Positions 8,772 to 56,498 of a DNA stretch of 64,000 bases are shown in pieces. Position 1 is the stretch's first letter, and every line of letters starts with the position of its first letter. This stretch comes from a virus. Where the stretch lies: UHGV virus genome UHGV-0021788; one strand, given 5' to 3'. Below the pieces are notes generated by a model that saw only the letters and a program-made list of their open reading frames with translations, was not told the DNA's origin and did no database searches. A program made the translations under genes and the position numbers.

Positions 8772-8800
8772 TTTACTTTTAATAATTAAATTTGTATAAT
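8772..8800 (+). promoter_or_regulatory. Intron-internal sigma-A-like promoter for the HEG: TTTACT-17-TATAAT.
   Basis: tttact, a 17-nt spacer, then tataat, followed by a GGAGGTG RBS and the ATG at 8823. The same cassette precedes the other HEGs. Confidence 0.5.
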
Positions 8801-8822
8801 ATAAGTAAATGGAGGTGGCAAA

Positions 8823-9536
8823 ATGGGAGTTATTAAATATGATTATGATTTCGTTAAAAAATATATCGAAAGTTTTAATTATAAATTATTAAGTGATTAT
8901 ATTGGTATACATGATAAAATAACATTAAAATGTCCTAAAAACCATATTTATAAAACTTCATTTAATAGTTTTTATAGTAACAACTGTAGATGTGGAAAAT
9001 GTAAAAATTTAGAAACAGCAAATAAGAGAAAATATTCAATTGAATACGTTAAAGAATATTTAAATTTATTTGGATATAAATTATTAACAGAAAACTATAT
9101 TAACAATAAACAAAAATTAAAAATAGAATGTGAAAAGGGACACATTTTCTATATGAGTTTTAGTAAATTTAAAAATGCAAAACAAAGATGTCCAGTGTGC
9201 AAAATGTCAAGTGGCGAACAAGAAATTTATAGAATATTACATAAATATTTTGATGACATTGAAATACAATATAAATTTAATGACTGTAAAGATAAAAAAA
9301 GACTTCCATTTGATTTTTATTTACCTCAATATAATTGTTGTATAGAATTTGATGGTATTCAACATTTTGAATATCAGCCACATTTTGGAACTTATTCTAA
9401 ATTTTTAAAACAGCAAAAAAGAGATGAAATAAAAACAGAATATTGTAAAAAAAATAATATAAAATTAATAAGAATAGCTTATTATGAATTTGATAAAATA
9501 GATGAAATTATAAAAAATGAATTAAAAGTAAAATAA
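8823..9536 (+). CDS. Intron-encoded homing endonuclease with a Zn ribbon and a Vsr-like/DUF559 (EDxHD-type) domain.
   Basis: CPKNH, CGKC and CPVC motifs are followed by LPFDFYLPQYNCCIEFDGIQH...IKLIRIAYYEF. Confidence 0.75.
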   Translation: MGVIKYDYDFVKKYIESFNYKLLSDYIGIHDKITLKCPKNHIYKTSFNSFYSNNCRCGKCKNLETANKRKYSIEYVKEYLNLFGYKLLTENYINNKQKLKIECEKGHIFYMSFSKFKNAKQRCPVCKMSSGEQEIYRILHKYFDDIEIQYKFNDCKDKKRLPFDFYLPQYNCCIEFDGIQHFEYQPHFGTYSKFLKQQKRDEIKTEYCKKNNIKLIRIAYYEFDKIDEIIKNELKVK

Positions 9537-9699
9537 TAAATATGAATAAACTTCAACGACTATCCCTAAATGGGAGTACACTCAAGTGGGTGGAAATGGA
9601 GGATACCTAGAAATAGGTAGTGATATAGTCTACTCTTACATGAAAATGTAAGCAGTCGAAAGACGGTATGAGATTAACGACCTCATGCGAATGTTAAGG

Positions 9700-10070
9700 C
9701 ATTGACAATGAATTGTCAAGTAATGGACGATGACTTCTTATGTATGATGCTTGGTGCTACTAAAAGTTCAGATGGTAAAATATCTGTAACATCTTCAGTT
9801 CCAAACCAAAGTTATACAGCAGAAGGTACTTTTAGAACTACTTCATTAGCTGGAGACCAATACAAAAAAATAAAATTCTACAACTTAAAAGCACAAGTTT
9901 CAGCTGACTTAACTTTATCTGCTTCTGATGTTTCTGAATTCTCATTAAAATTAGATATAATGGCAGATGATACTGGTAAAATATTAGATATAGAAAACAC
10001 TACTGGTGGTATATCTGCTGGATTTAATGAACCAGAAGTTGTTTCTATAAAAACTAAAGCTGATAAATAA
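9700..10070 (+). CDS. Putative major tail protein, exon 2.
   Basis: The frame opens at 9678. The joined product of about 186 aa is typical of siphovirus tail tube proteins. A strong terminator follows. Confidence 0.5.
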
Positions 10071-10091
10071 TTAAATATATACTTGATAAAT

Positions 10092-10127
10092 GGTGAGAGA
10101 TAACTACTATCTCTTACCATTTTTTTT
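10092..10127 (+). terminator. Rho-independent terminator after the major tail gene.
   Basis: ggtgagagata-actact-tatctcttacc stem followed by a T8 tract. Confidence 0.6.
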
Positions 10128-10173
10128 ATGCCCTAATAGTCTTATTTTAGATATGTAAAATAAAAAGAAGGAG

Positions 10174-10728
10174 ATGATTTTTGTGGATAGATTAGCATTC
10201 ACAAGCGATTTAATCGCAGACGATATAAGATGTAAATTAAAAGTTATAAGTAAAGAGGATGGTGAACCTAGCTATATAACTGTATGGAATATTAAAGGTG
10301 AAAGAAGACAAGAAGTATTAAATGAATTAAATACTATTATGGAATTACATAATGAAGATGATGAAAAATTATTTAATATGTTTTATACTAACCTTATCTT
10401 AGAATTTACTGATTTAGTAATGGATACTGATGATGTATTATTTTTATTAAATGATAGTACATTAGCTGGAAAAATGTTAATGCAAGAATTTAATGATATG
10501 ATATATGAAATACAATATGAAATAGCTATGGATAACTTACAACAAACTAGAAATTTAGCTATGGCTTTAATAACTCAAACTGCAATAGATGAAATGAATT
10601 ATGCACAAGAAAGAGTAGACAGAGCTAAAGATAAAAGAGATAAAAATATTTTTATAGATTTAGAAAAAGAAAAAAGAGAAAAACATCTTGCCTGTAAAAG
10701 AAAAGGAAATAAAAAATATAAAAAATAG
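10174..10728 (+). CDS. Putative tail assembly chaperone.
   Basis: It sits immediately upstream of the TMP and has an acidic/basic tail. An alternative start is the GTG at 10183. Confidence 0.45.
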   Translation: MIFVDRLAFTSDLIADDIRCKLKVISKEDGEPSYITVWNIKGERRQEVLNELNTIMELHNEDDEKLFNMFYTNLILEFTDLVMDTDDVLFLLNDSTLAGKMLMQEFNDMIYEIQYEIAMDNLQQTRNLAMALITQTAIDEMNYAQERVDRAKDKRDKNIFIDLEKEKREKHLACKRKGNKKYKK

Positions 10729-10731
10729 GAT

Positions 10732-11157: not shown

Positions 11158-11191
11158 TCAATCTATTAATAAGAAAGAGTGGTGGTAATTA

Positions 11192-14100
11192 GTGAGCGAA
11201 TTTGATATAAGAATTGGTACGCAACTAGATACTAGTAAAGCGTTACAAGAATTAATGGAATTTGTCAAAAAATATGACAATAAAGAAAAGATAAATATAG
11301 ACATAGGTCAATCAAAAGGTGCTAATAATGTAAAGAATACAACTAAAGCTATGAAAGAAATGCAAAAAATAGCTAAGACATTAGGAAATACAAAGATTGA
11401 CGTAGGTAGTAACATAGGTAAAGCAACCAATGAAGCTACCAAATCATTAGAAAATAGTATAGATAAACAAGCCAAATCTATTGCTAAAATAACTAGTGGT
11501 GCACAAAGAGATTTAACTAAAGATGCTCAAAAGGGTATTGAAAATAGTCTTAAAGGTATTACTACAGAAATGAAGAATACCCAAAGAAATGTCGACAAGA
11601 TGATTGGTACTCTTGAACGAGCTAAGAAGGTTGAATTAATAGACCAAAAAGGTTTAGATGAAGGATTAGCTAAATTAAAAGATATGAAAGCTAACCTTAG
11701 AATAGACAATGTTGGTGATGTAGAGAAAAAATTAGGCGAAGTAGCAAATGACTATAAAAGATTAATGTCAGATGCAACTAAAGAAGCATTTAATAATGTT
11801 GAAGTATCAGGATTATTAGAGGATTTAAAAGTTGTTAGAGAAGCTATGTCAGCTAAAAACATGGACTTAACTGGTGTTGATACTTTAATTTCTAAAGCTA
11901 AACAACTTACTTCTTTAAGTGTTGACCAAATGTTAAAACAATATAAAGAGTTAAGACAAGTATTTAGTAAAGAATTAAAGATACCATTAGGTTTAAATGG
12001 TGTAATGAATGCTGAAACTGCAATTAAAAATGTTTTAGATTATAAAAACAAATTAACTGCTAAAATTTCAGTTGAAACAAATTCAGAGCAAGTAGATATT
12101 TTAAGAGATAAAATAGTAAGATGTGATGAAGTTGTTAAACAACTTGAAGGAGACTTAAATTTAGTAGGTAGAAGTACAGCATTAAACTTAATGGAACAAT
12201 CCAATGAAAGAGAATTAGATACATTAAGTGCTAAGTTAAAGAGATGTAAGAATGATTATGCTAACTTAGAAAAAGAAAGACAAAGATTAAATAGAGATAG
12301 TAGATACATTGGAACAGAAGATTTAAGTAATATAGAAAAACAATCATTAGCTATAAAGAAAGCTCTTGATAGTTTAAATATTGGAAATTTAAATACAGAT
12401 AAAATAAATAAAGTTACTGGCGATATAAATAATTTAAGAAAAACAATAGAATTAACTGGTAATTCAGCTAAAAAATTAGATATAGAAGCAACAGTTAAAG
12501 TAGATATGAAAACTGCTCAAGACCAATTAAATGGTATGTATTCTGCTTTAATAAAATCTAATAAATCTACCGTAATGGTTAAAAAATATAAAGATGAATT
12601 AGAAGGATTATTTGATTTATCTAAAACTAATCCAGGTGTAGCATTAGATAAAATAAGTGGTTTTATAGAAAAAGTAAATAAAGAAGCAAGTAATAAAGGT
12701 TTAGGTAAGATAACTGGTGGTTTAGACCAATATAAACAATATTTAAAAGATTATGAAACATTAGTTAAAAAGGCTAGTGGTACTACAGATATTGGTTTTG
12801 CAAAAGCTTACAAATCAGAAGTTACACAAATAGAAAAAGCATTAGACCAATTAGAAAGTGGATTTAATCAAACTCAAAAATCTATGGCTAAAGCTTTAAG
12901 ATTAGAATCAATTAATAAGAACACTCAAGAGTTTACTAATCAAGTTGAAAAATCTATTAAGAAAACTCAAGAATATAAAAAAGAGTTACAAACTCTTAAT
13001 AAAGATGTAAATTTTGATGGTCTTACTTCTAAATTAGGTCAAAAAGTCAAAGAAGAATTTGACGGAATGATTAACAAAACTAATCAATTAGAAAAAAGAC
13101 TTGGTAATATGTTATCATCAGGTAACATAAATACTACTGAATTATCTAAATTAAAATCAGAACTTGAAAGTACTTTTTCTGGTCTTTCTAAACTTAAAGA
13201 TACTAGTATTAAAATTAAAACTGATGAAACTATATCAGGACTTAATAAAATTAAAAAAGATTTAGAATCATTAGGTCAAGATACTAGTCAAATAGAAAGA
13301 GTTATTAATGCATTAAAACAACTTAAAGCTAATTTCAGTGGTGGTACAGCAGGTTATAAAGAATTAGCTAATGGAATAAAAGCTATTGGAAAAGATAATA
13401 ACTTGGAAAAACTAAATAGTTCTTTAGAAAAATCAACTAAAAAATTTAATAACTTAGCTAAGGTTGTTGGAGAATTAAAGGTTAAAAATATAGGAAATAT
13501 AGACCAAGGTGCTTTTCAATCTTTAGACAGTCAAGTTGCACGAATACAATCTCATATAGAAGGTTTAAATAAAAAAGATATATCTTTAATAGATGTTAAA
13601 AAGGTTGAAGCTGAAGTAAATGAATTAAGCAACTGTGTAGAAAAAACGAGTAGTGAATTAACTCAGTATAGTAGATATTTAGAAGAATATAAAAGATTAT
13701 CTAGCCAAGCAGGTAAAACAAATGATGTTAATTTAGCTACAAAATATCAACAAGAAGCAGAAGGTATAAAAGGTGTATTAACTCAATTAGAAAGCGAATT
13801 TACACAAGCTCAAAAATCTATTGCTCAAGGATTAAAAACAGATGCCTTCTCAAATGCTAATGAAAAAATGTCTTCTGAAATTAATAAAACAATTAATACA
13901 GTTGATGGTCTTAAAGAAAAACTTAATTCATTAAATAAAGATGTACATTTTGAAAATATGACATCTGAATTAGGTAAAGGATTAAATGACCAATTTAATA
14001 CTTTAACTAGTAAAGGTGAAGAATTAAAAAATAAATTAAGTAAAATATTAGCATCTGATAATGTGGATATTTCTGCTTTAAGTAAAATTAAAAAAGAAAT

Positions 14101-16323
14101 AAATGAGTTTGCAAGTGAAGTTAATAATTTAAAAAATTCTGCAATGGATAATGTTATTAGAGAATCTTTTGATAACATTAAAATACCTAATTTAAATAAA
14201 CAACTAGAAGCAGTTAAAGATTTAATGTCACTTAAAAATATGGATACTAGTGGTATAGATGCCTTAATAGAAAGAACTAAAAAACTATCAAGCTTAAGCG
14301 TAGATAAAATAGGTCAAGAATTTAAGGAAATACAAAATGCACTTGGTAAAGAAATTAATTTACGTTTAGGTACTAGTGGTATTAAAGATATAGAATCTGC
14401 ATTAAAAGTCATATTACAATATAGAAATGAATTAAAAAATAAAATAGCAGTAGAAACAGACCCATCAAAAGTAAAAGACCTTAATAGTCAATTAGAAAAA
14501 ACTGAAAGCATAATAGAAAAACTTAAAGGTCAAACAAGTAATGGGCTTGGTGCAAGTTTAATTGGTGATGCTGACAAAAACAATTTGAAACAATTAGAAG
14601 ATACTGCTGATAAATTAAAGAAAACATTCTCTAATTTAGAAAACGAAGTAAATAAATTAAACAATGAAGCATTGAATAAAGTTGACATAAGTCAATTAAG
14701 AGAAATGAATGAAGTTGTTAATGATGTAAAGAAAAATTTAGCATCTATTGGAGAAGGAAATGTTAATGTTAATTCAATAAATAAAACAGCACAAGACATA
14801 GAAAAATTAAAAGGACTAATAGAAAACACTAAAAAGACAATTAGTGATATGAAATTGGAAGTTTCATTTAATGTTAAATCAAATGAAGCAGAACAATATT
14901 TAGCAGGTTTTGAATCAGCATTATTAAGATTAGGTAAATCAACCAGTGGAATAAATGCTTTAAAGAGTGAATTTGAAAGTATAAAAAATTCAGCTAATGG
15001 AAATTTAAGTAGTGCCATAAAAATGATTGATGACTTTATTAACAAATTAAAACAAATGGGTAGTAAACAAGGCTTAGGCAACATAAGTGGTACTATGTCT
15101 CAATATAAACAATATACTAAAGAATTACAACAAGCCATGAGTGGGGCATTAAAATCTAGTGGTTCTGATACAGCTAAAGGATTTGAACAACAAGCTGAAC
15201 GAATAAAGAGTGCTATAAAACGTTTGGTTGCAAGTTTCAAAGAATCACAAAGAGAATCGGCTAATGCTTTTAATGGTAGTACATTTAGTGGTTTTTCTTC
15301 TAAATATGAAGCTGAAATAAATAAAGTTGAAAAAAGCATAAACAGATTTAAATCATCAATGCAAAACTTAGATAAAGCTGTAAACTTTAAAGGCTTTCAA
15401 ACAAATTTAGGTAAAGGTTTATCTGAAGAATTTGACCAAATAATGGCGAAAGCTGAACAATTAAGGGATAAATTAAAGAGTGCATTATCTTCTGGTACAT
15501 TTGATATAAGTGAAATAAATAGAATAAAAGATGAATTAAAACAAGTTGAACAAGAAGCAGATTCATTAAAACAAAAATCTATAGTATTAAAATGTGCTGA
15601 AAGTATAACAGAATTAGAAAGACTTAGTGGTAAGATAAAAGATATAGGTGGAGACACATCAAAAATAGAAGAATTAAAAAATAAATTTGTTACACTTGGT
15701 ACAGGTATAAGAGAAGGTACTACAGGAATAGATGATGCAATTTCTAAATTAAAATCCTTATCTTCCGAAGCACAAAGAACTGCTAGTTCTTTTGAATCAA
15801 CTACTGGTAAAATAGGTTCTTTTGGTTCTAAAATACAAGGTTTCTTTAGTTCTATAAAGAATTCATTTAGTACTTTTACTATTGGTAATTTAATGGCTGA
15901 TGGTATAAATCAAGCTGTTTATCAAATAAAAGATACTATAACAGGTTTAGATGAAGCAATGGCTGAATTTAAAAGGGTTGCTCCTGATAACTTTAGTTTA
16001 AATACATCTAATTTACAAAGTGTTGCTAATGAAGCAAGAGAAATAGGTATTAGTGTTGGACAATCAGTAGAAGATGTTATCACTGGAATGAGTACTGCAT
16101 TACAAGCAGGTGCAGGTGATATTAAAACAGCTTCTGAAATAGCTAAGAGTTCTGCTATATTCCAAAATGTTACAGATATGAGTGCAAAGGGTGCTTCAAA
16201 AGCTATTTCTTCAATGGTTAACCAATATTATGATATGGATTCAGCATTAAATCAAGTTGACCACGGTGTAGGTAAATCCGTAAAAGGGTACAACAACCTA
16301 ACCGAAGCGATGGATTTGGTAAT
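11192..16323 (+). CDS. Tail tape measure protein, exon 1.
   Basis: A long coiled-coil-rich ORF. The track's C-terminal DLPFILEII residues are intron read-through. The conserved TMP core (FSTFTIGNLMADGINQAVYQ...) lies near the exon end. Confidence 0.7.
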
Positions 16324-16595
16324 TGATTTGCCGTTTATATTAGAAATAATATAAATTATTAGAGGGCAAAATCGGTGAAGACTAAGTTTTTATAAATATG
16401 TTGATACCGAGATAACTTATTAGATTGCGAAAGGCTAATAAGTATTGTAGAGCATAGGAATTGAATAAATATAATATTCCCAAGAGTGCCCTCCATTCTA
16501 ACGTAAAAAGACGAGGATGAAAATATATGCCATACTGAGCTAGAATTGACTAGCTGATGAAAATGAGGGAAACCTCCAGAGCATAAGATAAAAAG
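16324..16595 (+). mobile_element. Intron-like element, class 2 (ORF-less, about 270 nt), inside the TMP gene.
   Basis: Noncoding in all frames. It shares attgccgt...attagaggg...atcggtgaag.ctaagt...ataccgag...tctaacgt.aaa...tgaaaatatatgc...ataaaaaG with the element at 17397-17750. The flanking exon ends are similar (gaagc.at.g.tggtaat). Confidence 0.55.
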
Positions 16596-16629
16596 CTTAT
16601 GGATAATAACAATAGAAATTACGCTGGTT
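16596..16629 (+). CDS. Possible 34-nt TMP mini-exon between two introns, encoding (I)LWIITIEITLV. This is uncertain.
   Basis: It is the only frame that bridges exon 1 (phase 2+1) to the next exon at 17010. The alternative is a composite intron spanning 16324-17009. Confidence 0.3.
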
Positions 16630-17009
16630 AGAATTAGCCAGGCTATATGGAAACATGTAGTACAAATCTCTTTTGAATTGCTGGAAAGGACTTAGAGCCT
16701 ATTGAACTACAACGTAGATGGAAACATCAAGCGTGAATGTTTAAAAATCAATAGGATTGTTTAATCAGCAGGTAAGATTCTAAGTAATAATTTTATATTA
16801 TTATATGAATAAACTTCAACGACTATCCCTTGGATGTTGAAATACATCAATAGGAGTACGGCTCAAGTGATTGGAGTGGGTGAGAATCCCTTAAATGGAA
16901 GTGGAAGAGGACTTATAAAGGTTCAAGATATAGTCTACTCTCGTAGGAAATCTACGAGCAGTCCTTTTTTGGACGGTATATGTGTAGCGAACATATATGA
17001 ATATTAAGG
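16630..17009 (+). mobile_element. Group I intron, class 1, ORF-less, inside the TMP gene.
   Basis: P at 16676-16687, Q at 16763-16772, R at 16814-16825, S at 16926-16935. Only about 40 nt separate Q from R, where the other copies carry a promoter and HEG. The 3' end reads tgaatattaaGG. Confidence 0.75.
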
Positions 17010-17396
17010 AATAACTTTGCGATTTCATCTGATGGTGTAACAGAAGCATTACAACGTGGTGGTTCTGTATTATCTAACTATGGAGTAGATTTAAAAGATT
17101 CTATTGCAATGATAACTGGGGCAAATGAATCTTTACAAGACCCCGCTCGTATAGGTAATGGTTTAAAATCTATAGCAATTAACCTTTCAGGTATTAAAAC
17201 AAATGCAAAAACAGGTGCTCTTGAATTAAATAAAACAGCAAAAGCATTGCAAGAAACTGCTAAGATAGATATATTTACTGATAGTACTAAAACACAAGTT
17301 AAAGATGTTGTTACTATAATGGATGAAGTAAAAGATAAATGGGCTTCTTTAACTGATGTTGAACAAAAAGGATTGTCAGAAGCTATAGCTGGTAAT
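17010..17396 (+). CDS. Tail tape measure protein, exon 3.
   Basis: The frame opens at 17001. It contains the conserved TMP core (NNFAISSDGVTEALQRGGSVLSNYGVDLKDSIAMITGANESLQDPARIGNGLKSIAINL). The track's ORF at 17109-17402 is the same frame. Confidence 0.65.
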
Positions 17397-17750
17397 ATGT
17401 AAGATTAGTAAATTTATATAAATTTTTATAAAATACAAAAATCTTAAAATTGCCGTCTTTGATAGAAATATTAAAGATAATTAGAGGGATGTATCGGTGA
17501 AGCCTAAGTCGAAAGATATGGTAATACCGAGGGTATCTTAACAGAGAATATCCGTAACGCATAGGGAGTGAGCGATATTGTTAGCAATAACCTCCCCACG
17601 AGCTTCCTCCACGATTATATATAGGATAATCACTTATAGATGTTGCTACTATAAGTTCTAACGTTAAACGAGAGTGAAAATATATGCTGGACTTATGAGA
17701 AATCATAAGAAGTGGATGTGTGAATCGACACACTATTAATAGATAAAAAG
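17397..17750 (+). mobile_element. Intron-like element, class 2 (ORF-less), inside the TMP gene.
   Basis: A paralog of 16324-16595. It is noncoding. The downstream frame opens at 17748, so exon 3 joins exon 4 at a codon boundary. Confidence 0.55.
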
Positions 17751-20700
17751 CTCCACGATAACAAATCGAAAACCCAAGCCGGTGTATTCCAAGCATTGAT
17801 GACAGGTTGGGAAAGAGTTCGTCAATTCCAAAAAGAATACAATGAAGGTTGGATGATAGGTTCAGCCCAAAGAGAAAATGAAATCTTTATGGATTCCATT
17901 GCTGGTAAAATGAATACTTTAAAAGAAAATCTTAAAGGATTATTAACTAGCAATGTTACAACAGATATGTTTAAAGGTCTATTAGATGGTGCTAATAAAG
18001 TAGTAGAAGCAGTAGGAAAAATAAGTTCAAGCTTAGGTAAAATTGGTTCAGCTGGTGCTTTAGTAGGTATTTCATCTTTCGTAAAAACTTTAGCAAATTT
18101 GGATAAAGCTAAAACAATAGGTGGTGGTTTTACAGGATTTGATAAAGTTTTAGAAGTAATACAAGGTACTGCTGTTACTTCTTCTGGTGAAATAAAAACA
18201 CTAGGCGATAGTTTTAAAGAATTAGGTGTTAAGACAACTCTATCTAAAGTAGCATTAGGATTATTTAAAGGTGTATTAATGGGTATTGCATTTACTGCTG
18301 TTGTTAAAGGAATAGATGCTATGGTAAAAGCATGGGATAATTATATTCATGCAACAGAAAATGCAGTAAAGGCTTCTAAGGAAAGACAAGATGGATTTAG
18401 AGATGAAGCACAAACATTAAGTACTAAAAAATCAAGTCTACAAGAAATAGCTAAAGAATATGATAATTTAAATAATAAATCTGATAAAACTGCTGAAGAT
18501 TTAACTAGATTAAATGAATTAAAACAACAAATAGGACAAATAGCTCCTGACCTTGTTAAAGGATATGATTCAGCAGGTAATCCAATATTAAATCTTACTA
18601 CTAGTATGCAAGGTTATATAGCTGAATTAGATAAAGCAATTGCTAAACAACGAGAATTATATAATTATGAAACTAAAAAACAAGCACAAGAATACATGAA
18701 GAAAAATGACACTAAAAATGGTGCTCAAGACCCAGATAGGAATTCTTATGAAACTGAATTAAATCATCTTCAAAATGCAAATGATAGAAAAACTAGAGAA
18801 GAAAAAAGATATACTGGTAGCTTAAAAAATATTATTAAAGATAGAAATAAATATAGAGAAGACCAAGAAAAAAGCATTAATGAAAGATTAGAAAGGATTA
18901 GAAACGCACAAACAGAAGTTAATAATAGAGATGCTACAATTGAAGATAATTATGTTAACGAATTTAATAAGAAAACCAAATTAGCTGAAAAAGAACAAAA
19001 TAAATTTGCTACCTTTATGAAAGGGTTAAATTGGGGTACTTATGGCGAAGCAGAAGCCAATAGAATGTCTAAAGGTTTACAAAAATTATCTGAAAAGACT
19101 GCATTCACAACTCAAGAGATGACAAAAGGATTATCAGGTAGTCTATCAAAAAAAGTTTCAGAAGAAATTTCTAAAGTAAATGCAGAATTCAAAAAAACAA
19201 ATGCTGTAAATGAATGGGGAAAAGGTTTAAGAAAAATAGCTAATGAAACAGGAAAATTTGATTTTTCAAATTGGAGTAATTACTTATCAGAAGTTCAAAC
19301 TCGTTTTGAACAAGGAGTAAGTACTAATGAACAATATACACATTCATTAGGAATTATGGCTGATGCTATGGAAGATTTAACTGGTATAGATTCAGATGTA
19401 TTCTTACCAGCTTTAAAAGGTGGAGCAGATTTAGAAGAAGCCTTTAAATCAGCAACTGAAGGCTTAAATGGTTTTATGAGTGCTTATGGTTCTTCTACTG
19501 CAAAATTACAACAAGGTGATTCATTTGCTAAAAAATTAGAATCTCAATTTAAAGAACTTCAAAATTTTGAAACTGAATTTGAAGGTCAATATGAGATGCA
19601 AGGTAAAGTTAGTGTAGATTGGTTAGTAGAACAAAAAGATAATGAAGATTTACCTAAGCAATTAAGAACTATAATAGATGCAGTAACAAAAGATGGAGAA
19701 GTAACAGAAGTAGAAGAAAAATTAGTATTAGCTTGTGAAACAGAAATAAAAGATAAAGGTAAATTAGAACAAAGCACAATAGATGCAATAAATCAAGTTA
19801 TGGATGGAACATGGGATGTAAATAAAACTATTGAAATAGGTGGTATGGAATTTACATCATCTGAAATAAGAGAATTAATGTCATTGGCAGACCAATTAGG
19901 TATATCTTTAGAAGGTTTAAATATTGGTGATACAGGATTAGAAGGAGAAAATCAAAAAGCTCAAGCATTAAAAGATACAATAGATTCAATTACAGATAGA
20001 GATATAAAAGTAGCAATAGAAGCAGAAGGATTTGAGAATTCAGACCAAGTTAACAACATAATGACAGTTATTGACCAAATAGATGGAAAACAAGCCAAAG
20101 TCGATTTTATAGCAGATGCTTCTCAATACTTTATGGAAAATGATAGTGTTGAATCAGCAATAAAAGCTATGCCTGATGAAATAAAACTTAAATATAATAT
20201 TGGTGTTGAAGGCGATGAAAGACTAGAAGGAATACAAAGTAGACTTGAAAAATTACCAAAAGATATTAGAACTATGGTATATGCTCAAACATATGGTGTT
20301 GAAAATGTTGAAATGCTAGAAAACATAGTAGATGCTTTTGGTGGAAAAACTGCAACAGCAATATTACAGTTAGATGGTATAGATGAAGCTCTTAGAAATG
20401 CTAGTACATTTGAGGAACAATTAAAAATAATTGGAGATTTTATATGTCAACCTGGAGTAGAAATAGAAGGTAAAGATGACATAATTAAAACAATTGATGA
20501 AATATTAAAGAAATTAAAAGAAACAGATGAAAAAGAAAGTAATCCTAAAATAAATGTAGAAGGAGATACTTCTGGTGCAGAGAAAGTAGAAAAAGAAGTA
20601 GACAATGTAGGCAATAAAAAAGGTACTGCTAAAGCAGATGTGGATGGAGATACTTCTGGTGCAGAGAAAGTAGAAAAAGAAGTAGACAATGTAGATGGTA

Positions 20701-24611: not shown

Positions 24612-24825
24612 GGGTAATGTTGCCCTAGTCGTAAAGTAATTTGCGACTGAAAATAGATTTAATTGCAGGTAATCCCTAAAGCTCTACACCACAATATATC
24701 TGAAAAGAATATATGAAGGTACGAAAGTAGAAAAAACGTAGAGATTCTCATATGGTTAAATCCTAAGTGAGAGTAACAATGGGTGTTCATGCAAGGAAGA
24801 TTCTAAATTAAATTATTTTAAATAT

Positions 24826-24854
24826 TTTACTTTTAATAAAATAAGCAGTATAAT
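24826..24854 (+). promoter_or_regulatory. Intron-internal promoter for the HEG: TTTACT-17-TATAAT.
   Basis: -35-like tttact, a 17-nt spacer, then tataat, followed by an AAGGAAGGGG RBS and the ATG at 24878. Confidence 0.45.
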
Positions 24855-24877
24855 ATAAATAAGGAAGGGGTGAAATT

Positions 24878-26002: not shown

Positions 26003-26177
26003 TTTAACATGAATAACCTTCAACGACTAGAATGCGAATTCGTAGGGTGTAAGTGATTGACACTCGAAAAGGTCTACCCTTAATATTAAGGTGAAGAAAT
26101 AGTCTAGTCTCATATGAAAGTATGAGCAGTTCATAAGAGAACGGTATATGTTTAGCGAACATATATGAATATAAGCG

Positions 26178-26802: not shown

Positions 26803-26840
26803 AAGGAAGGGTTAAAATATAACTCTTCCTTCTTATTTTA
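26803..26840 (+). terminator. Rho-independent terminator after the TMP gene.
   Basis: gaaggaagggtt-aaaatat-aactcttccttc followed by ttatttta. Confidence 0.5.
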
Positions 26841-26871
26841 TATATGTAAGATAAAAGAAAGGAGAAAGAAT

Positions 26872-48697: not shown

Positions 48698-48702
48698 AGG
48701 AG

Positions 48703-49975
48703 TTGGATATATTGGAAACTATTAAGAAAAGTGCATTTCAAGAAATTGGTATTCTTAATGATAATGATTATTTTGATATAGTTACTAATACAAATGTTAA
48801 TAGAAGAATTAAATTTTCAGCAATGAAAGAAGCTATAAATAATAGTGTTAATTCTTATGTCGATGTTAAAGCAAAAAATGGAAAAATTTTCAGATTAACT
48901 GTTAATAATGAAGGGGAAATAATTTGTCAAAATGCTGAAGCATATACTGCTACTGCTCCAGAAAAAACTGAAAGTGGTAGATTTGCTGGTTTAATGATAA
49001 ACATGATATATGGTGGTGGAAATAATAAAAATAATACTGCTTGTTCACATCACTTTATAGAATTATATAATCAAAGTACTAGTAGTATGGATTTAAATTT
49101 AAAAGGACTTTATTTATCTGTTAAAAGTAATACAGGTGATTGGCAATCTCTTGCATTAGAGGGTATAATACCTTATCAACATTCATTCCTTGTAAGATGT
49201 AATCAAGTTTCTAATCCTGTACTATTAGGTACTAGATGTAAAATAGATACATATGACCAAGAATGGAATATAGATTTAACTGATGTAGGATTTAGTGCTT
49301 ATTTATCAATAGGAACACCTACAACTGTTAATCCAGCTAATGCAGATGGTAATATGAATAAAGAAGTTGGATATATAGACTTAATGGGTGCTGGTGGAAC
49401 ACAAGAAACACAAGGAGTTAAAGCTTTTGAAACTGCCTATCCAATGTTGATGACTAAAGATATAGGTTGTAGAAGACTTGACTTTGCTGATACAGATAAT
49501 AATCAAAAAAACTGTAGAGCAATAAATTGGAAAACTTGTGATGTAAGTGTCTATAAACCTAGAAGTGTATCAGATGGTAAATGGGACTTATACTTTAACA
49601 AAGCAAAACTAAAATCTACAATGCCTAATCTAATAAATATGTGTTATGGACAAGATGGTTCTAAAACTAGAACATTTACTTTCCAAACTGTATTAACTGA
49701 TGAAGGTTATATTAAATGGAGAAAATACGGAGAATTAAAATGGAATAAAAAACCTACTACTAAAGAAATAATAACTCACTATGATTGTGATGCTACTTTA
49801 CATAGAGTTTTTATTACTGATTTACAACCTGGAATTTATGAATATCAATGTGGTTCTGAAGGTGCATGGAGTGATATAAGTACTTTTGAAGTAAGAAATT
49901 ATGCACAAACTGCTGATAAAAGTAATTTTGTACATAACGATATAAAAATGTTATGGACTACAGACCAACAAGCAT
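48703..49975 (+). CDS. Purple-acid-phosphatase-like metallophosphoesterase tail protein, exon 1 (N-terminal domain plus the PAP N-domain).
   Basis: HRVFITDLQPGIYEYQCGSEGAWSDISTFEV matches the Pur_ac_phosph_N pattern. The real start is possibly the TTG at 48712. The frame is interrupted by the intron at 49976. Confidence 0.5.
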
Positions 49976-50194
49976 GGACTAACATATAGTCCCTATATTA
50001 AGTGATTAGTATAGTAAATCCTTTGAATTGCTGGTAAATCCTAAAGCCTTATAAACTACAACATGATTAGAAATAATGAGTGTGAATGTTACGAAAGTAG
50101 AAAAAATTATAAGGATAACATATGGTTAAATCCTAAGTGTTATATACAATGGAAGCTCAGCAGGTAAGATTCTAAATTAAATTATTTTAAATAC

Positions 50195-50223
50195 TTGACT
50201 TTTAATAAGATAAATTGTATAAT
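50195..50223 (+). promoter_or_regulatory. Intron-internal promoter for the HEG: TTGACT-17-TATAAT.
   Basis: Consensus -35 and -10 elements with a 17-nt spacer, followed by a GTGAGGTGA RBS. Confidence 0.55.
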
Positions 50224-50245
50224 ATAAGTAAAGTGAGGTGATAAA

Positions 50246-51160
50246 ATGGGAAGAAAGAAAACACATGAGGAATTTATGAAAGAGTTTTATGAAAAAAATC
50301 CTAATGCTAAAAATATAGAAATATTAGGAAAATATGAAGGTAGAAAAGTAAAAATTTTATGTATGTGTAAAATAGATAACTATAAATGGCATACAACTCC
50401 TAATGGATTATTGGGAAGTAAAAATATTAAACCAAATGGATGTCCGAAATGTGCTGGAAAAATAAAAAAAACACATAAACAATTTATAGAAGAAATGAAT
50501 GAAATAAATCCAAATATTAAAATATTGGGGCGTTACATAGATGCTAAAACTAAGATAGAATGTGAATGTAAAATAGATGGATATAAATGGGAAGTTGAAC
50601 CAACTAATTTGCTACAGAAAAGAGGATGTCCAAAATGTGCTAATAAAATACCTAGAGAACATGATGATTTTGTTAAAGAATTAAATAACATCAATCCTAA
50701 TATAAAAATAATAGGTAAATTTATATCTACTAGAACTAAAATAGAATGTGAATGTAAAATAGATGGATATAAATGGGAAGCTGAGCCAAGACATCTTTTA
50801 GGAAATCATGGATGTCCAAAATGTAATGATTCTATTGGAGAAAAAATAACTTATAATATATTAAATAAATTAAATATAAAAAATATAAGACAATACAAAT
50901 TTAAAGATTGTAAATTTTATAAATGTCTTCCTTTTGATTTTTATTTGCCACAATATAATTGTTGTATTGAAATTGATGGTAAGCAACATGAGAATATAGT
51001 CAAATGGTTTGGTGGGTTAGATGGTTTTATAGATAGAAAAATTAGAGATACGGTTAAAGATATATATTGTAAGAATAATGGAATAAAATTAATTAGAATT
51101 ACATATAAAGATATAAATGAAATAGAAAAAATAATTTGTCAAGAACTTAATTTAAATTAA
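50246..51160 (+). CDS. Intron-encoded homing endonuclease with three Zn-ribbon modules and a Vsr-like/DUF559 domain.
   Basis: CPKC repeated three times. The C-terminal part reads LPFDFYLPQYNCCIEIDGKQH..IKLIRITYKDI. Confidence 0.75.
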   Translation: MGRKKTHEEFMKEFYEKNPNAKNIEILGKYEGRKVKILCMCKIDNYKWHTTPNGLLGSKNIKPNGCPKCAGKIKKTHKQFIEEMNEINPNIKILGRYIDAKTKIECECKIDGYKWEVEPTNLLQKRGCPKCANKIPREHDDFVKELNNINPNIKIIGKFISTRTKIECECKIDGYKWEAEPRHLLGNHGCPKCNDSIGEKITYNILNKLNIKNIRQYKFKDCKFYKCLPFDFYLPQYNCCIEIDGKQHENIVKWFGGLDGFIDRKIRDTVKDIYCKNNGIKLIRITYKDINEIEKIICQELNLN

Positions 51161-51319
51161 TTTAATATGAATAAACTTCAACGACTAAGTATCCTAGTAG
51201 TCTAGGTAGTGGAGGATACCCTTATTGGGTAATGATATAGTCTGCTCTCATGGGAAACCATGAGCAGTTTTTATGTAAAAAAACGGATAGAATAGTAACG
51301 ATATTCTATTGAACATAAG

Positions 51320-52155
51320 GTGTTGAGGAATCACAAGCTACTAATGTTTGTTTCCAAAATATAAGTGAATGGGAAAAAGGTACTGATTTTGATTTTCATT
51401 TAAATACAGGCGACATTTCGCAAAATGCAAACAGAAGTTTTGAGTGGAGATACCACTATAAATATGCAGATGACCTAATAAGAACTATGTGTCATCAAAT
51501 AACTTGTGGGAATAATGACTTAATAGATAAGAAATATTCAGATGCATTTACATGGTACATGACACCAGAAGATTATTTCTTACCAGACCAAATAGATAGT
51601 GGTTCAGGTGTTATGGTTAATAATCCTAATAAATGTACTTTTAATTCATGTCATAGTTTTGACTTAGGATATGTACATTTTGTTTGTTTAAATAGTAATA
51701 AAGATTATTCTATGTTTAATGAAAATGAAGGTGAAAAAATAGATGATTGGATACAAAGAGAATGTGCATGGTTAGATGCAGATTTAACTAGAGATGAATC
51801 TAATGCTAAAACAAGATGGGTAATATGTTATATGCATTACGCACCTTTTACAGTATCTAGACCTGACTGGATACAAAGATTTGTTCCTGTATTTGAAAAA
51901 CATAGAGTACATTTAGTATTATGTGGTCACAACCATACAAACTCAAGAAGTATTGTAGTTAGAAGTGGTTATGATGGAGACCCAAATAAAGCAAGCTATG
52001 ACCCTAAAGGTCAAAAAACAGCTGAAGAAGAAACAGCTTTAGGACATGGTACTATAAATCATAATGAAGATTTAAAAAATGGTACTCTTTACCTAATGAT
52101 TAATGCAACTGGATTCAAGAATACAGGTAAAGAAAGTATACAAAATCCTTATCCT
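51320..52155 (+). CDS. Metallophosphoesterase catalytic domain, exon 2.
   Basis: GDISQNA, the GNHE-like LCGHNHTN (GHxH) and YMHYAPF are calcineurin-like phosphoesterase motifs. The frame opens at 51319. Confidence 0.55.
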
Positions 52156-52332
52156 TGGTAAAAAAATATTGCCACTTTACATAGTAATATGTAATGACAA
52201 ACTCATTGAATTGCTGGGACGACCTTAGAGCCTTAATGCCACAATATAAGAGAAATCATTATATGAAGGTTTAAAAAGTTTAAGGATTGGTTAATCAGCA
52301 GGTAAGATTCTAAATTAAATTATTTTAAATAC

Positions 52333-52361
52333 TTGACTTTTAATAAGATAAATTGTATAAT
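52333..52361 (+). promoter_or_regulatory. Intron-internal promoter for the HEG: TTGACT-17-TATAAT.
   Basis: Identical to the cassette at 50195-50223. Confidence 0.55.
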
Positions 52362-52384
52362 ATAAGTAGAGTGAGGTGATAAAT

Positions 52385-53299
52385 ATGGGTAAAAAGAAAA
52401 CACATGAGGAATTTATGAAAGAGTTTTATGAAAAAAATCCTAATGCTAAAAATATAGAAATATTAGGAAAATATGAAGGAAACAATAAACCTATTAAATG
52501 TCGTTGCAGAATAGATGAATACGAATGGTATCCAAGACCTTGTCATTTATTGGGAAATAAAAATGCTAAACCTACTGGTTGTCCTAAGTGTAGTGGAAAA
52601 GCAAAAAGAACAAATGAAGAGTTTATTAAGGAAATATATATAATAAACCCTAATATAGAAATACTTAGTGAATATAGTGGAGTTAGTAATTTAATAGATT
52701 GTCGTTGTAAAATAGATGATTATGAGTGGTCATCAATTGCTGATAATTTATTACATGGACATGGTTGTCCTAAATGTGGAGGACAAATAAAAAAGGAACA
52801 TGAAGAGTTTGTAAAAGAAATGGAAGAAATAAATCCCAATATAGAAATACTTGGGGAATACAATGGAGTTCATGAATATATTTTATGTGGATGTAAAATA
52901 TGTAATCATGAATGGACAACTCGTCCTCATGAATTATTAAATGAATACGGATGTCCTTCTTGTAATATATCTCGAGGAGAATTTAAAATAAAAACTTTAT
53001 TAGAAAAATATCAAAAACAATATAAATATCAATATAAATTTAAAGATTGTAAATTTTATAATGAATTACCTTTTGATTTTTATTTACCTGATTATAATAT
53101 TGCAATAGAATATGATGGAGAACAGCATTATAAAATAATTAAACAATTTGGTGGAATAAATAGATTAATAGATAGTAAAATAAGGGATACTGTTAAAACT
53201 GAATATTGTAAAAATAATAACATAAAACTTATAAGAATACCTTATTGGAATTATAAAGATATAGAAAATATACTTATAAAAGAACTTAATTTAAAATAA
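52385..53299 (+). CDS. Intron-encoded homing endonuclease with a Zn ribbon and a Vsr-like/DUF559 domain.
   Basis: CPKCSG, CPKCGG and CPSC motifs. LPFDFYLPDYNIAIEYDGEQH..IKLIRIPYWNY. The ATG at 52385 follows a GTGAGGTGA RBS. Confidence 0.75.
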   Translation: MGKKKTHEEFMKEFYEKNPNAKNIEILGKYEGNNKPIKCRCRIDEYEWYPRPCHLLGNKNAKPTGCPKCSGKAKRTNEEFIKEIYIINPNIEILSEYSGVSNLIDCRCKIDDYEWSSIADNLLHGHGCPKCGGQIKKEHEEFVKEMEEINPNIEILGEYNGVHEYILCGCKICNHEWTTRPHELLNEYGCPSCNISRGEFKIKTLLEKYQKQYKYQYKFKDCKFYNELPFDFYLPDYNIAIEYDGEQHYKIIKQFGGINRLIDSKIRDTVKTEYCKNNNIKLIRIPYWNYKDIENILIKELNLK

Positions 53300-53475
53300 T
53301 TTAACATGAATAAACTTCAACGACTATCCTGTAATGGAGTAGGGTTCAAGCGAACTCGAAGTAGTGAGCATCTTAATAAAGATGAAGATATAGTCTAGTC
53401 TCATGGGAAACCATGAGCAGTTTTTGTGCGTAAAAACAAAACGGGTTAGGTGTAGCGAACCTAATTGAATATAAC

Positions 53476-53690
53476 GGGTATGGATTAAGAACTTCACATC
53501 CAACACAACCAACTTATGCAACATTAACTATAGGTTGGGATAAGATAGAATATAAATGCTATAAGATAATGAACACATTAAGTAAAGATAGAAACGGAAA
53601 TACAATAGTAGTGCCTTATGGTAGTCAAACTAAAGAATTGTATGATAGTTGTACTCTTAATTGGAGAGCAAAAGGTCAAACACTAATATA
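53476..53690 (+). CDS. Metallophosphoesterase, exon 3 (C-terminal, about 71 aa).
   Basis: The frame is open from 53434 to the TAG at 53688-53690. It joins exon 2 at a codon boundary (..NPYP/GYGLRTSHPTQ..). Confidence 0.4.
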
Positions 53691-53704
53691 GGTGGTGATA
53701 GTTT

Positions 53705-56377
53705 ATGCCTAATAGAATTTGGAGTGAAGAAAAAAAAGATTGGATAATAGTCGATGAAACAAATTTAGCTACAAATATAGAAGTAATGGATATCAAAGAG
53801 TACTATCATAAAAAGAAAACAGAAGAAGAAACAAAAGATGATGAATTTTTAAGTGTTGAAAAATGCTTAGAACAAATAGGGGATAAAATAAATAATGGTG
53901 ATATAGGTGCTATAGGTGAAATAAAAGATAAAGTACAAGATTTGGATGACAGAGTAACCTATATTGAAGAAAACGGTGGTGGTGGAGGAGGTGGCTCTTC
54001 CATGCCTACCGTTAAACTTCTTAGTGATAGTTATTATGCTATACCAACCGATGGAGAATTAAATATTTATTATAACTTTACTTCTCCAAATATAGGATTT
54101 GGTACAGCATTTATAAGTTTAGACTATGGAACAGCTGAACAGTTATCAGTTGCACAAGGTCGTAATTTTTATACTGTAAAAAACTTAGAAAAAGGTGAAC
54201 ATAGACTAGATATATATGTAACTGATATAACAGGTTTATTCTCGAATACAGTTACAGTAACAATAGTTGTTGGTGGACTTGAATTAACTTCTAATTTTGA
54301 CGATAGTACGGATTTATCCTTAGAGGATTATATTAGAATAAGATATGTTATCTCAACAATATCTTCTAAGCCAATTGAAGTGTCTATTGAAATAGATGGT
54401 AAACTAACAAAAGCAGAAGGTATAATTGGTCAAAATATATTGGAAGTTGGACAGTTTAGTTCATTAGGGGTTCATACAGTTAAAATATCAGCCGTCAGTG
54501 GTGATTTAGTATCAAACCAATTAGTATTTAATTTAGTTGTAGCCGATTCAGAAAATCTTTATGTATCTACTACTTTTCCTGATAATTATACTATACAAGT
54601 AGGTAAAAACCTACAAATTGATTATAGAAATAGTATGGTAAATCAAAATAGATTTATTACTCATATGCTTATAAATGGTACTGAAGTAGATACGGTAACA
54701 TCTTATTCAGGATATAACTATTGGAACGTTGGGTCTAATTTAGAGATAGGTTTATATACTTTAACATTATATTCTACTACATCCGATGGTGCATATACAT
54801 CAAATTATTTAACATGGGTAATAGATGTTGTTTCAGAAGACTATGTTCCCTTTAAGGTTGTAACAGATGGGTTATTATGTAATTTTGATGCTAATGGTAA
54901 TCAACAAACATCTTCTAGTAGAAACATATGGAAAGACGATAGTGGAAACGACGTTAAATGTGAATTGTTTAATTTCAACTATTCTACAAATGGTTGGATA
55001 GATAACAGTTTAGTATTTAATGGTAAAACATATGCTAAAATAGATTTTTCTCCTTTTAGTGATAATATCAAAAATGGTATGACAATTGATATGTTATTTA
55101 AAGTAAAAAATGTTGGTGATATAGACGGAAAAGTATTATGGTGTAAAAATCCAATTACACCTTACCAAGGTTTTTATATAAATACTTATGAGGCAAATTG
55201 TCGTTCTGCCAACTCAAGAATAGTTAGTAACCAATTTCAAGATGACACATGGACTAGAATAACATGGGTTATTAATAGAGAAGATTTGACAATGATAGCT
55301 TATGTAAATGGTATCATAACGAAACCTGTATATATAACAGATACAGAAAACTTTAGAATGGAAAAAGATATTTATCTAGGTGTATCATTTGACGAAGTAG
55401 ATAACAATTTAGATAATGATGGTAATCCAATACCTCACTATGCATCTTGTTCTATAAAAACATTTAGAATATATGATAGAGCATTAACTGATGAAGAAAT
55501 ATTACAAAATCATATTGCCGATATAAAAGATAAAGAAAAACAATTGGAAATAAGAGAAAAGAACTATGGTGATAGTACAATGCCTATCATAAAATTTGAA
55601 GGTAATGTAGAAGGTATGGATGGTAGTATCTATAAATTATTAACAATAGATTATAATGACCCATTAGACCCATCTAAACGTTTTAGACAAGAACAATGTA
55701 GAGTAAAATGGCAAGGTACTTCTTCACTAGAATATCCAGTAAAAAACTATACAATAGAACTTAGAAGTGGTGGTAACGTTTGGGAATATGCTCCTAAAGA
55801 CAATTGGCTACCAGAAAAAAGATATACTTTGAAGGCTTCGTTTATGGATAGTTCTACATATAATAACGTTGGTTCTTCTAAATTAATTTATGATTACTTT
55901 AGAAAATCTAATATGTTTTATCCACAAGAAATTAAAAATCCTAAAACTAGAGCAGTAATAGATGGTTTCCCAGTTAGACTTTATATTAATGGGGAATCAA
56001 AAGGTATATATATGTTCAATATAGATAGATATGCTGAAAACAATTATGGATTTTCTGGGGAATCATCAATTGTATCTTATGAAATAGCTGTCAACTCTGA
56101 AAGTGGTGCTGGTGCTTTCGCATCAGATGCTTGGTCAAGTATACGTTCTGAATTTGAAATGAGATATCATTATGCTGGAGATGAAAGTGTTGTATGTGAA
56201 ACTGTTATGGAAAATGGTGTACCAACTACTGTTTTAAAAGCAGGTTTTCATTCAGAATTACAAAATTTAGTTTCATGGGTATTAAATTCTACTATAGAAG
56301 AGTTTAGAAGTGAATTAAAAGAACATTTTGAATTAAACTTTTTAATAGATTATTATCTATGGGTTCTATGTTTGGGT
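53705..56377 (+). CDS. Giant host-interaction protein, exon 1: a Gly-rich linker, Ig-like region, LamG (ConA-like) domain and the N-terminal part of a CotH-like domain.
   Basis: LamG-like NSLVFNGKTYAKIDFSP...TWTRITWVINRED..AYVNG. CotH-like KRYTLKASFMDSSTYNNVGSSKLIYDYF...VRLYINGESKGIYMFNIDRY. The RBS resembles that at 47598. Confidence 0.55.
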
Positions 56378-56469
56378 TAATACAATGGCTCAAGTAAAAC
56401 TTTCTCTGATTAATGGCGAACACCCTAGTAGAAAAGGGCAACGCTCAAGAAGATTTATTTAACAATATT

Positions 56470-56498
56470 TTGACTTTTAATAAAATAAGTAGTATAAT
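56470..56498 (+). promoter_or_regulatory. Intron-internal promoter for the GIY-YIG HEG: TTGACT-17-TATAAT.
   Basis: The same cassette (ttgacttttaataaaataagtagtataatataa) as the Vsr-like HEGs. Confidence 0.5.

Follow-up and report, generated by a model that had tools for sequence, protein, structure and literature searches.

The stretch of DNA considered here (the window, in what follows) consists of 64,000 nucleotides from the viral genome UHGV-0021788, and corresponds to a one-strand phage structural module with a G+C content of 28%. It contains six group I introns, named i0 to i5, each with a homing endonuclease gene (HEG): i0 to i4 belong to class 1 and carry HEGs of the PD-(D/E)XK type, and i5, of the putative group I class 3, carries a HEG of the probable GIY-YIG type. 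In all six introns, a short block, referred to below as the cassette, lies in the P6a loop, just 5' of the HEG open reading frame (ORF). This block looks like a promoter plus a ribosome-binding site (RBS), with every sequence feature of both, and a promoter function is strongly suggested.

All the cassettes are on the + strand. The −10 hexamer is TATAAT (6/6 bases) and the spacer is exactly 17 bp long in all six copies, and the −35 hexamer is variable. TTGACT, which matches TTGACA at 5/6 positions, is present in i3 (50195-50248: TTGACT 50195-50200, TATAAT 50218-50223, GAGGTG 50235-50240, ATG 50246), i4 (52333-52387: TTGACT 52333-52338, TATAAT 52356-52361, GAGGTG 52373-52378, ATG 52385) and the class 3 intron i5 (56470-56522: TTGACT 56470-56475, TATAAT 56493-56498, GGGGTG 56509-56514, ATG 56520). 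TTTACT (4/6) is found in i1 (8772-8825: TTTACT 8772-8777, TATAAT 8795-8800, GGAGGTG 8811-8817, ATG 8823) and i2 (24826-24880: TTTACT 24826-24831, TATAAT 24849-24854, GGGGTG 24867-24872, ATG 24878). The partly decayed i0 cassette (3224-3278), with three mismatches to the consensus, has TTAATT (3/6; 3224-3229), followed by TATAAT (3247-3252), GGAGGTG (3263-3269) and ATG (3276). An extended −10 TG occurs in i1, i3 and i4 only. The Shine-Dalgarno sequence (SD) is GGAGGTG in i1, GAGGTG in i3 and i4, and GGGGTG in i2 and i5, and ends 5-6 nt from the ATG; the distance from each promoter copy in the window to the HEG start downstream, which has a strong SD, is 21-23 nt. The window contains five copies of TT(G/T)ACTTTTAATAA-N8-GTATAATATAA; an SD and then an ATG come after each of them. 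The 33-nt consensus TTKACTTTTAATAANATAANNNGTATAATATAA, with up to three mismatches, matched exactly the five sites in the window and had no match in 100 dinucleotide-preserving shuffles of it.

A preliminary description of this DNA had recorded the copies of i1 to i5 as TTGACT-17-TATAAT promoters lying just after the Q element and followed by a GGAGGTG-type RBS. All five exist where they were reported, with 17 nt between a −35 hexamer and TATAAT in each case, and the placement after Q is borne out, each copy lying between Q/P6 and R, that is, in the P6a loop. TTGACT is the −35 hexamer at 50195, 52333 and 56470, but not at 8772 and 24826, where it is TTTACT. Likewise, an SD precedes every ATG, but the exact GGAGGTG is found only in i1 among the five. 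The five HEG introns listed are all real, but the sixth, with the partly decayed cassette at 3224-3278, had been overlooked.

The cassettes are located between Q/P6 (CAGCAGG-TAAGATTC) and R (TTCAACGACTA), with S (GATATAGTC) further downstream. An ORF-less class 1 copy (16640-16958) matched the Rfam model RF00028 (Intron_gpI) with a score of 58.5 bits (gathering score 50, E = 1.8e-14), and the HEG-bearing class 1 introns have the same core sequences (P, Q, R and S). In this ORF-less intron (~16640-17010), P6/P6a is a plain hairpin (16773-16817, + strand), which therefore represents an empty site. The class 3 empty site (57519-57542, + strand) is the P6 hairpin CAGGAAGATTT-ATAA-AATCACCTG of an ORF-less class 3 intron (27.6 bits with RF00028, below the gathering score). 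It is by comparison with these ORF-less empty sites that the HEG module is placed in the terminal loop of P6/P6a. The two ORF-less class 3 copies directly 3' of i5 scored 27.6 and 23.1 bits, and the class 2 elements gave 30.5 bits at 16330-16553 and no match at 17390-17810; the class 2 and class 3 matches are below threshold, with E-values of 4e-6 to 1e-3 in small searches. When the full window was scanned with Rfam, no group I intron was returned, whether the threshold was the gathering score or E up to 10, because the ORF inserts of ~1 kb and the size of the search hide introns that small sub-windows recover.

The arms that bracket the HEG modules lie outside the cassette. In class 1 introns, TTAAATTATTTTAAAT and ATTTAAAATAATTTAA form a perfect 16-bp pairing in i2 and i4. 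The i2 5' arm TTAAATTATTTTAAAT (24808-24823, + strand) ends 2 nt 5' of the −35 hexamer and pairs over 16 bp with 25992-26007, which includes the HEG stop codon; the 5' arm of i3 is at 50177-50192, and the arms of i4 are at 52315-52330 and 53289-53304. In i5, the 5' arm TTTAACAATATT (56458-56469, + strand) is part of an exact 12-nt inverted repeat, the 3' arm of which, AATATTGTTAAA (57220-57231), contains the stop codon. The 3' arm of the HEG modules thus overlaps the last codons and the stop codon.

Other features of the introns of the window were also observed. The gene split by i0 (2563-3027 / 4491-4913) belongs to phrog_4088. Positions 1-760 contain the 3' end of a seventh HEG (stop at 505) and then the 3' half of a class 1 intron, with R at ~515-525 and S (GATATAGTC) at ~679; this HEG is cut by the start of the window, and its cassette therefore lies outside. 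A 35-nt tandem duplication, GAAGTAGA(G/A)AATGTCTTATTTAATTAATGTAAGAT, is present at 606-676, within this intron half. Three ORF-less elements break up the tape-measure region at 16330-17800: two class 2 elements (~16354-16660 and ~17402-17796), with the class 1 group I intron (16640-17010) between them. A giant gene (48703-61396) encoding purple-acid-phosphatase-N/metallophosphatase, laminin-G, CotH and LRR domains is apparently split by five or more introns, namely i3, i4 and i5 plus a pair of ORF-less class 3 introns (~57438-57663 and ~57706-58000). The last three of these introns are separated by micro-exons of roughly 20-60 nt.

The HEGs served by the cassette belong to at least two unrelated families. 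The products of the i0 (303 aa, 3276-4187), i1 (237 aa, 8823-9536), i2 (374 aa, 24878-26002), i3 (304 aa, 50246-51160) and i4 (304 aa, 52385-53299) HEGs, all encoded on the + strand, are paralogues that share DUF4379/CapR zinc-finger repeats and a conserved C-terminal domain. In the i0 (phrog_559, E = 9e-65) and i3 products, the zinc-finger repeats were recognized together with a PD-(D/E)XK-type nuclease domain at the C-terminus, the i1 and i2 HEGs are also of the PD-(D/E)XK type, and the i4 HEG is a paralogue of that of i3, with 96% identity over the first 55 nt after the ATG. The isolated C-terminal domain of the i3 protein matched PvuRts1I-like_N with 29.9 bits (curated cut-off 27), with weak matches to DUF559 and DUF2726. 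For an AlphaFold2 model of this protein (mean predicted local distance difference test score of 78.5), the top fold match in the PDB was Escherichia coli Vsr (1vsr), a weak match (probability 0.87, E = 0.07, TM 0.49). Together, the profile and fold matches assign the C-terminal nuclease domain to the restriction-endonuclease-like (Vsr) fold; a label of the narrower Vsr/EDxHD subfamily is not warranted. Single-sequence PDB searches with the i3 and i5 proteins yielded no match, and a PDB search with a profile of the PD-type HEGs yielded no nuclease match.

The i5 HEG (236 aa, 56520-57230, + strand) is unrelated to those of i0 to i4. Its product has a putative N-terminal domain of the GIY-YIG type, with a visible YVYEW-x10-FYVGKG-x3-R motif, followed by NUMOD3 repeats (E = 5e-12). 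Homologues with 52-59% identity over 96-99% of its length carry PF01541 (GIY-YIG), and the family profile gave weak PDB matches to GIY-YIG chains (E = 0.017-0.029), UvrC (E ~0.35) and the DNA-binding domain of I-TevI. Pfam gave no direct match for residues 1-97, and a BLASTP alignment with an I-TevI sequence was limited to the NUMOD3-like linker. In relatives of this phage, the cassette is also present 5' of HEGs with a zinc-finger N-terminus and an HNH-type C-terminus (weak Pfam HNH_2 match, motif visible). Two of these HEGs (L004 4909-5826 and L006 2552-3445) share with the PD-(D/E)XK HEGs of the window (compared with 50246-51160) the leader and the N-terminal zinc-finger repeats, but their C-terminal domain is of the HNH type, so that catalytic domains may have been swapped on a common DNA-binding scaffold. 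The claim that the cassette serves two unrelated families in different intron classes, a PD-(D/E)XK/Vsr-like one (i0-i4) and a GIY-YIG one (i5), is thus upheld, and HNH is probably a third family.

We then considered the distribution of the promoter beyond the window. Viral, genome and metagenome collections were scanned with a strict pattern of 25 bases, in which TAA is fixed in the spacer, and a relaxed pattern, ACTTTTAATAA-N8-GTATAATATAA, with 22 fixed bases. Matches to the strict pattern were almost all intronic and located in human-gut phage contigs of ~150-205 kb; the exceptions, both unrelated, were a 39-kb phage (L002) and a site in a Firmicutes metagenome-assembled genome (L008), where it forms the promoter of the bacterial gene pth. 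The scan with the relaxed pattern yielded 79 loci. Six large contigs (147-204 kb) had 11-29 exact matches each: 156249 (204 kb, 29 matches), 163643 (198 kb, 27), 159628 (198 kb, 25), 160472 (173 kb, 24), 166499 (147 kb, 21) and 152729 (174 kb, 11). The loci overlapping the window displayed 91-97% nucleotide identity to it. The 143 unique contexts comprised ~35 intronic sites, three sites before a free-standing HEG and ~105 ordinary intergenic sites within the clade (110 sites were labelled generic; the in-clade figure of ~105 was obtained after reassigning three misclassified sites, and two of the 110 are out-of-clade).

The generic sites have the context of ordinary promoters. A terminator-like hairpin with a T-run lies no more than 70 nt upstream of 55 of the 110 sites labelled generic, and the genes located 3' of these copies include, besides many small ORFs, those of an intein-containing DnaE-like polymerase, an FtsH-like protease, an aminopeptidase, a metallophosphoesterase, TnpB and an antirepressor-like protein. 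The 22 fixed bases (25 of the 33 consensus positions if the three 5' bases of the −35 hexamer are included) and the following GTAAA are common to the ~105 non-HEG promoters; the generic consensus is tttttaaataattA-TTGACTTTTAATAAgAntaaTAGTATAATATAAGTAAAtaAgatAAa and the intronic consensus is TTgACTTTTAATAAnAtAAatnGTATAATATAAgTAAag-gagg. The i5 and i3 HEG proteins and the FtsH-like protein P0230 occur on a single contig of 206,351 bp, and P0230 is encoded identically on scaffold L103. The 18-kb replication module of this scaffold (DnaB, a DHH protein, a methyltransferase and PolIII-alpha) has eight promoter copies (≤2 mismatches), all on the coding strand and in intergenic gaps, with none expected by chance. 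The SD is also widespread: GGTGAT-type SDs also precede ordinary genes of the window (8374, 27572, 28366, 36023, 45828 and 53705), and the GGAGGTGA RBS is the general extended SD of the phage. Within the 64-kb structural window, the promoter was found with HEGs only.

Several further observations concern these promoters. In relatives, the canonical promoter also lies 5' of an IS605-type TnpB gene (L069, L087) and of an intein-containing PolIII-alpha/DnaE-like gene (L038; L103 13530-16505); with TnpB and intein genes, these phages hold several kinds of selfish elements. A leader motif, aaagaaTTTGACTTATTTAATATATGTAGGTAATGAGGTGATAA, is present ~40-70 nt 3' of some generic promoters (L067, L072, L075, L082, L084), and might act either as a second promoter in tandem or as a leader with a regulatory role. 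The P6a 5' arm TTAAATTATTTTAAATA (24808-24823, 50177-50192, 52315-52330) resembles the AT-rich tract upstream of the generic promoters, tttttaaataattA, at the same position, and might double as an UP-like element.

The cassette is probably the canonical sigma-A-type promoter of this phage clade, together with a short leader and the standard extended SD, which would make each HEG its own transcription unit. The sequence has the characteristics of sigma-A-type promoters: a −35 hexamer close to TTGACA, TATAAT, a 17-bp spacer and recurrence at intergenic, post-terminator positions upstream of an SD. Diverged intronic copies of relatives retain the hexamers and the 17-nt spacing, with an altered spacer (TTTACA-17-TATAAT in L003, TAGACA-17-TATAAT in L010). 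In the L005 orthologue of i0, the −35 hexamer and the start codon have decayed together, and the HEG is truncated at its 5' end. The orthologous i0 cassettes of L003, L005 and L021 all have a lost −35 hexamer, ATG changed to ATA and a 5'-truncated HEG, and resemble a decaying HEG. The likeness of the cassettes would be due mainly to the very strong conservation of this class of promoter and of the SD throughout the genome, and their sharing by unrelated HEGs is therefore to be expected and is not itself evidence of exchange. As this promoter class drives replication and other non-structural genes and has no other copies in the structural module, transcription of the HEGs is probably early or middle, and independent of the genes they interrupt.

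In the mechanism we propose, each HEG-bearing group I intron would have, in the terminal loop of P6/P6a, a canonical sigma-A-type promoter with the consensus TTGACTTTTAATAA-N8-GTATAATATAA(GTAAA), followed ~22 nt downstream by the extended SD (G/A)G(A/G)GGTGA and then by the HEG start codon. The HEG would be a transcription unit of its own, with a short leader, read by the form of polymerase that serves replication and other non-structural genes, probably the sigma-A form of the host RNA polymerase, at an early or middle stage of infection, and its expression would not depend on the interrupted structural genes. In the pre-mRNA, the complementary arms of 12-16 nt would close P6a, keeping the ribozyme core intact. 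Segments composed of promoter and leader have probably been moved between intron modules by recombination, as suggested by the chimeric structure of i5 described below.

Some considerations weigh against this explanation. The census was drawn from close relatives and from a scaffold encoding an identical protein, rather than from the window's own contig, and conservation at the census positions was partly imposed by the search, because the pattern fixes 22 bases. The conservation of 33-45 nt exceeds what recognition by sigma-A alone needs, and a phage-specific factor or another temporal class is still conceivable. The anatomy of the cassettes, the families of their HEGs, their setting within introns and their genome-wide recurrence in relatives that are almost identical are matters of observation; promoter activity, temporal class and recombination history are deduced from sequence and context. 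As for exchange, the spacer signature of the intronic copies rests on many orthologous, non-independent copies.

The preliminary description had interpreted the cassette as a modular expression unit exchanged between different HEGs and introns. In its full form, in which the unit is HEG-specific and portable and its sharing is in itself the evidence of exchange, we consider this explanation unlikely: ~105 of the 143 contexts are ordinary intergenic promoters with the same 22 fixed bases and GTAAA, the SD is the general one, and eight copies lie in the L103 replication module. Part of the case for exchange nevertheless stands. From the −35 hexamer to the ATG, the i5 cassette is 82-87% identical to the class 1 cassettes, whereas identity in the 55-nt flanks is 0.51-0.65, for a background of 0.57 ± 0.05; the similarity is therefore sharply bounded. 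The spacer TAA (N8 positions 3-5) is present in 20 of 30 class 1 and both class 3 intronic copies, versus 2 of 110 generic copies, both out-of-clade, and the nearest in-clade neighbours of the class 3 cassettes (i5 and L009) are class 1 cassettes rather than generic promoters. However, this signature is absent from the copies in class 2 introns and before free-standing HEGs. The L071 (class 1) and L062 (class 2) promoters are identical, a point in favour of exchange, but L062 differs by only 1 nt from the generic promoter L038, which argues against a single closed subfamily. The discriminating evidence amounts to some eight bases of the spacer and some 20 of the leader, with orthology between many of the copies.

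The i5 module provides a further indication. Its promoter and untranslated leader, from −35 to ATG, are 87% identical to those of i2, and its first 120 coding nucleotides have 86% identity with a GIY-YIG HEG that is free-standing in relatives (L070, L092), the promoter and leader of which are only 65% identical to those of i5, with a 14-nt indel. Judging from these identities, i5 is a chimera, with a class 1-like leader and an ORF like that of the free-standing GIY-YIG HEG, and recombination among promoter-bearing modules is likely. Thus, the spacer signature and the i5 chimera speak for modular exchange, but most of the similarity between cassettes reflects the consensus of the canonical promoter and SD.

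The presence of introns and HEGs varies among near-identical phages (comparison with L001, L027, L006, L007, L070 and L092). The intergenic site of the free-standing GIY-YIG HEG is empty in the window (63163-63217). In relatives L097 and, probably, L101, a solo canonical promoter without an ORF is present in a class 2 intron, near window position ~16385, where none is found in the window. Relatives also have two additional introns, one at ~24490 containing a HEG of the HNH type and one at ~26394 containing a HEG of the PD type, and, in the gap at ~63190, the free-standing GIY-YIG HEG of 317-319 aa, all absent from the window. It is tempting, but speculative and on balance doubtful, to see the ~45-nt promoter and leader as a portable patch of homology through which nuclease ORFs are swapped among intergenic sites, where they are free-standing, and the P6a slots of introns of three classes. 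If this were so, the intronic spacer subfamily and the i5 chimera would be footprints of a single promoter-mediated shuffling of HEGs, the replacement of PD-(D/E)XK by HNH ends and the class 2 solo promoter would result from the same process, and early-type promoters in late genes would time the cutting of co-infecting genomes before the transcription of the host genes of the introns.

Alternatively, the intronic promoters might serve the phage itself, as internal promoters boosting or retiming the downstream parts of long structural operons. No terminator was found 3' of the HEG ORFs, so that transcripts would reach the 3' exon and downstream genes, and the solo promoter in the class 2 intron of relatives (L097, L101) has no ORF. 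Nevertheless, this explanation is quite improbable: every copy in the window is positioned 21-23 nt before a HEG start with a strong SD, the free-standing GIY-YIG HEG brings its own promoter copy into a site empty in the window, the −35 hexamer of the L005 i0 orthologue decayed together with the HEG start codon, and transcripts from intronic promoters would run into the 3' exon while lacking both a start codon and the 5' exon.

It is more improbable still that the block is mainly an intron RNA element, either part of the P6a structure or a hairpin hiding the RBS, with its likeness to a promoter being secondary. The minimum-free-energy fold of five of the six cassettes does contain a pairing between the SD, rich in purines, and the −35 region, rich in pyrimidines (ACUUUU), in a geometry that would mimic the control of I-TevI (PMC2988022), but these folds (−4.4 to −7.3 kcal/mol) are no better than those of shuffled sequences (z −0.78 to +0.75) and their pairs are largely G-U. 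Moreover, the block sequence occurs more than 100 times outside introns, and the true arms of P6a, which are not the same in the different intron classes, are located beyond the block. An RBS-sequestering hairpin was rejected on the basis of the same match between fold energies and shuffled sequence. The block is also unlikely to be a mimic of the homing site, or operator, of each HEG, as it is almost identical across HEGs with different targets. Finally, chance or convergence in AT-rich sequence with generic sigma-70 hexamers, the objection of a merely AT-rich consensus raised with the preliminary description, has a negligible probability: the two unrelated strict-pattern matches (phage L002 and the L008 pth promoter) are the only independent out-of-clade matches in the collections scanned, against 11-29 per in-clade genome, shuffles of the window gave none against the 5-6 observed, and the identity of the cassettes continues through the spacer edges and the leader.

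Other features of the window bear less directly on the cassette. The tape measure gene is located at 11192-16354 and the minor tail gene at 28366-30051. By tail protein, the closest isolates are Clostridioides phiCD211-like phages (37-41% amino-acid identity), SPbeta-like phages being more distant, and a megablast search with 49900-53800 against GenBank phages revealed no close relative. A second motif, CTTATTTTAnATATGTAArATAAAAG, is present at 10141-10166 and 26832-26857. It is partly palindromic, lies after terminators and before the SDs of structural genes, recurred at orthologous sites only in the loci retrieved, and may be a different (late?) type of promoter.

These results correct a tempting inference: an upstream sequence common to unrelated HEGs need not be a HEG-specific mobile cassette, and here the shared sequence is mostly the phage's own stringently conserved promoter and SD. 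For this uncultured clade of human-gut phages of ~150-205 kb, the 33-45-nt promoter consensus could be used to annotate transcription units. As intronic and free-standing HEGs seem to be the only carriers of this promoter within the structural module, they probably follow an expression schedule other than that of the genes they interrupt. The empty introns, solo promoter, free-standing HEG and chimeric intron HEG provide a series of states for the colonisation of introns by HEGs, and an intron-rich clade with a hyper-conserved promoter may merit attention in its own right.

Strong conservation of phage promoters is not without precedent. The early promoter families of large lytic phages such as T5 and SPO1 have near-consensus hexamers, a 17-bp spacing, AT-rich flanks and conservation beyond the hexamers, and are present in many copies per genome, directly after terminators. 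Unlike these promoters, the one described here has at least 22 fixed bases identical at more than 100 sites, with copies in self-splicing introns.

The closest parallel for the arrangement itself is phage T4, in the td (I-TevI), nrdD (I-TevII) and nrdB (I-TevIII) genes of which the HEG ORF occupies a peripheral loop of a group I intron (Gott et al. 1988; PMC2988022). As described there, the T4 intron HEGs have an intron-internal promoter of the phage's standard type and a consensus SD ~8 nt from the AUG, and are controlled by an RBS-sequestering hairpin and an operator, with the ORF's 3' end entering the intron structure (PMC2988022). The window displays the same organisation, with a HEG in a peripheral loop, a phage-standard promoter (here by sequence) directly upstream and transcription probably uncoupled from the interrupted gene, and a single arrangement likewise serves different HEG families (GIY-YIG and HNH in T4). 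The principle was set by T4 in 1988, and the current view of intron HEG expression is unchanged. According to the same accounts, T4 differs in three respects. Its intronic promoters are middle or late (late, TATAAATA) and lie in early or middle genes, whereas those reported here are of the −35/−10 sigma-A type in structural, presumably late, genes. The T4 hairpin sequestering the RBS is very stable, whereas no fold beats shuffled sequences here. Lastly, the operators overlapping the T4 promoters mimic the homing site of each HEG; here, one sequence serves HEGs at no fewer than five different target sites, and a T4-style operator model is therefore unlikely.

Dassa et al. (2009; PMC2677866) described conserved hairpin/late-promoter 5' elements of GIY-YIG and Vsr-like HEGs in 'fractured genes', and noted that Vsr-like HEGs also occur in group I introns (PMC2677866). 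As in the part of that study considered here, unrelated HEG families at unrelated loci share an upstream phage promoter motif and an RBS (PMC2677866). The elements it describes differ in being hairpins around the T4-type late promoter TATAAATA, with the HEGs free-standing between split-intein halves (PMC2677866), and a genome-wide promoter census, as made here, is not reported in that part of the study (PMC2677866). Finally, the empty introns of this clade, the free-standing GIY-YIG HEG with a promoter of its own and its intron-borne paralogue i5 correspond to the states predicted by models of the invasion of introns by HEGs. The leader of i5 resembles class 1 leaders and not the one that the free-standing paralogue carries; this series must then have included one more step of recombination.

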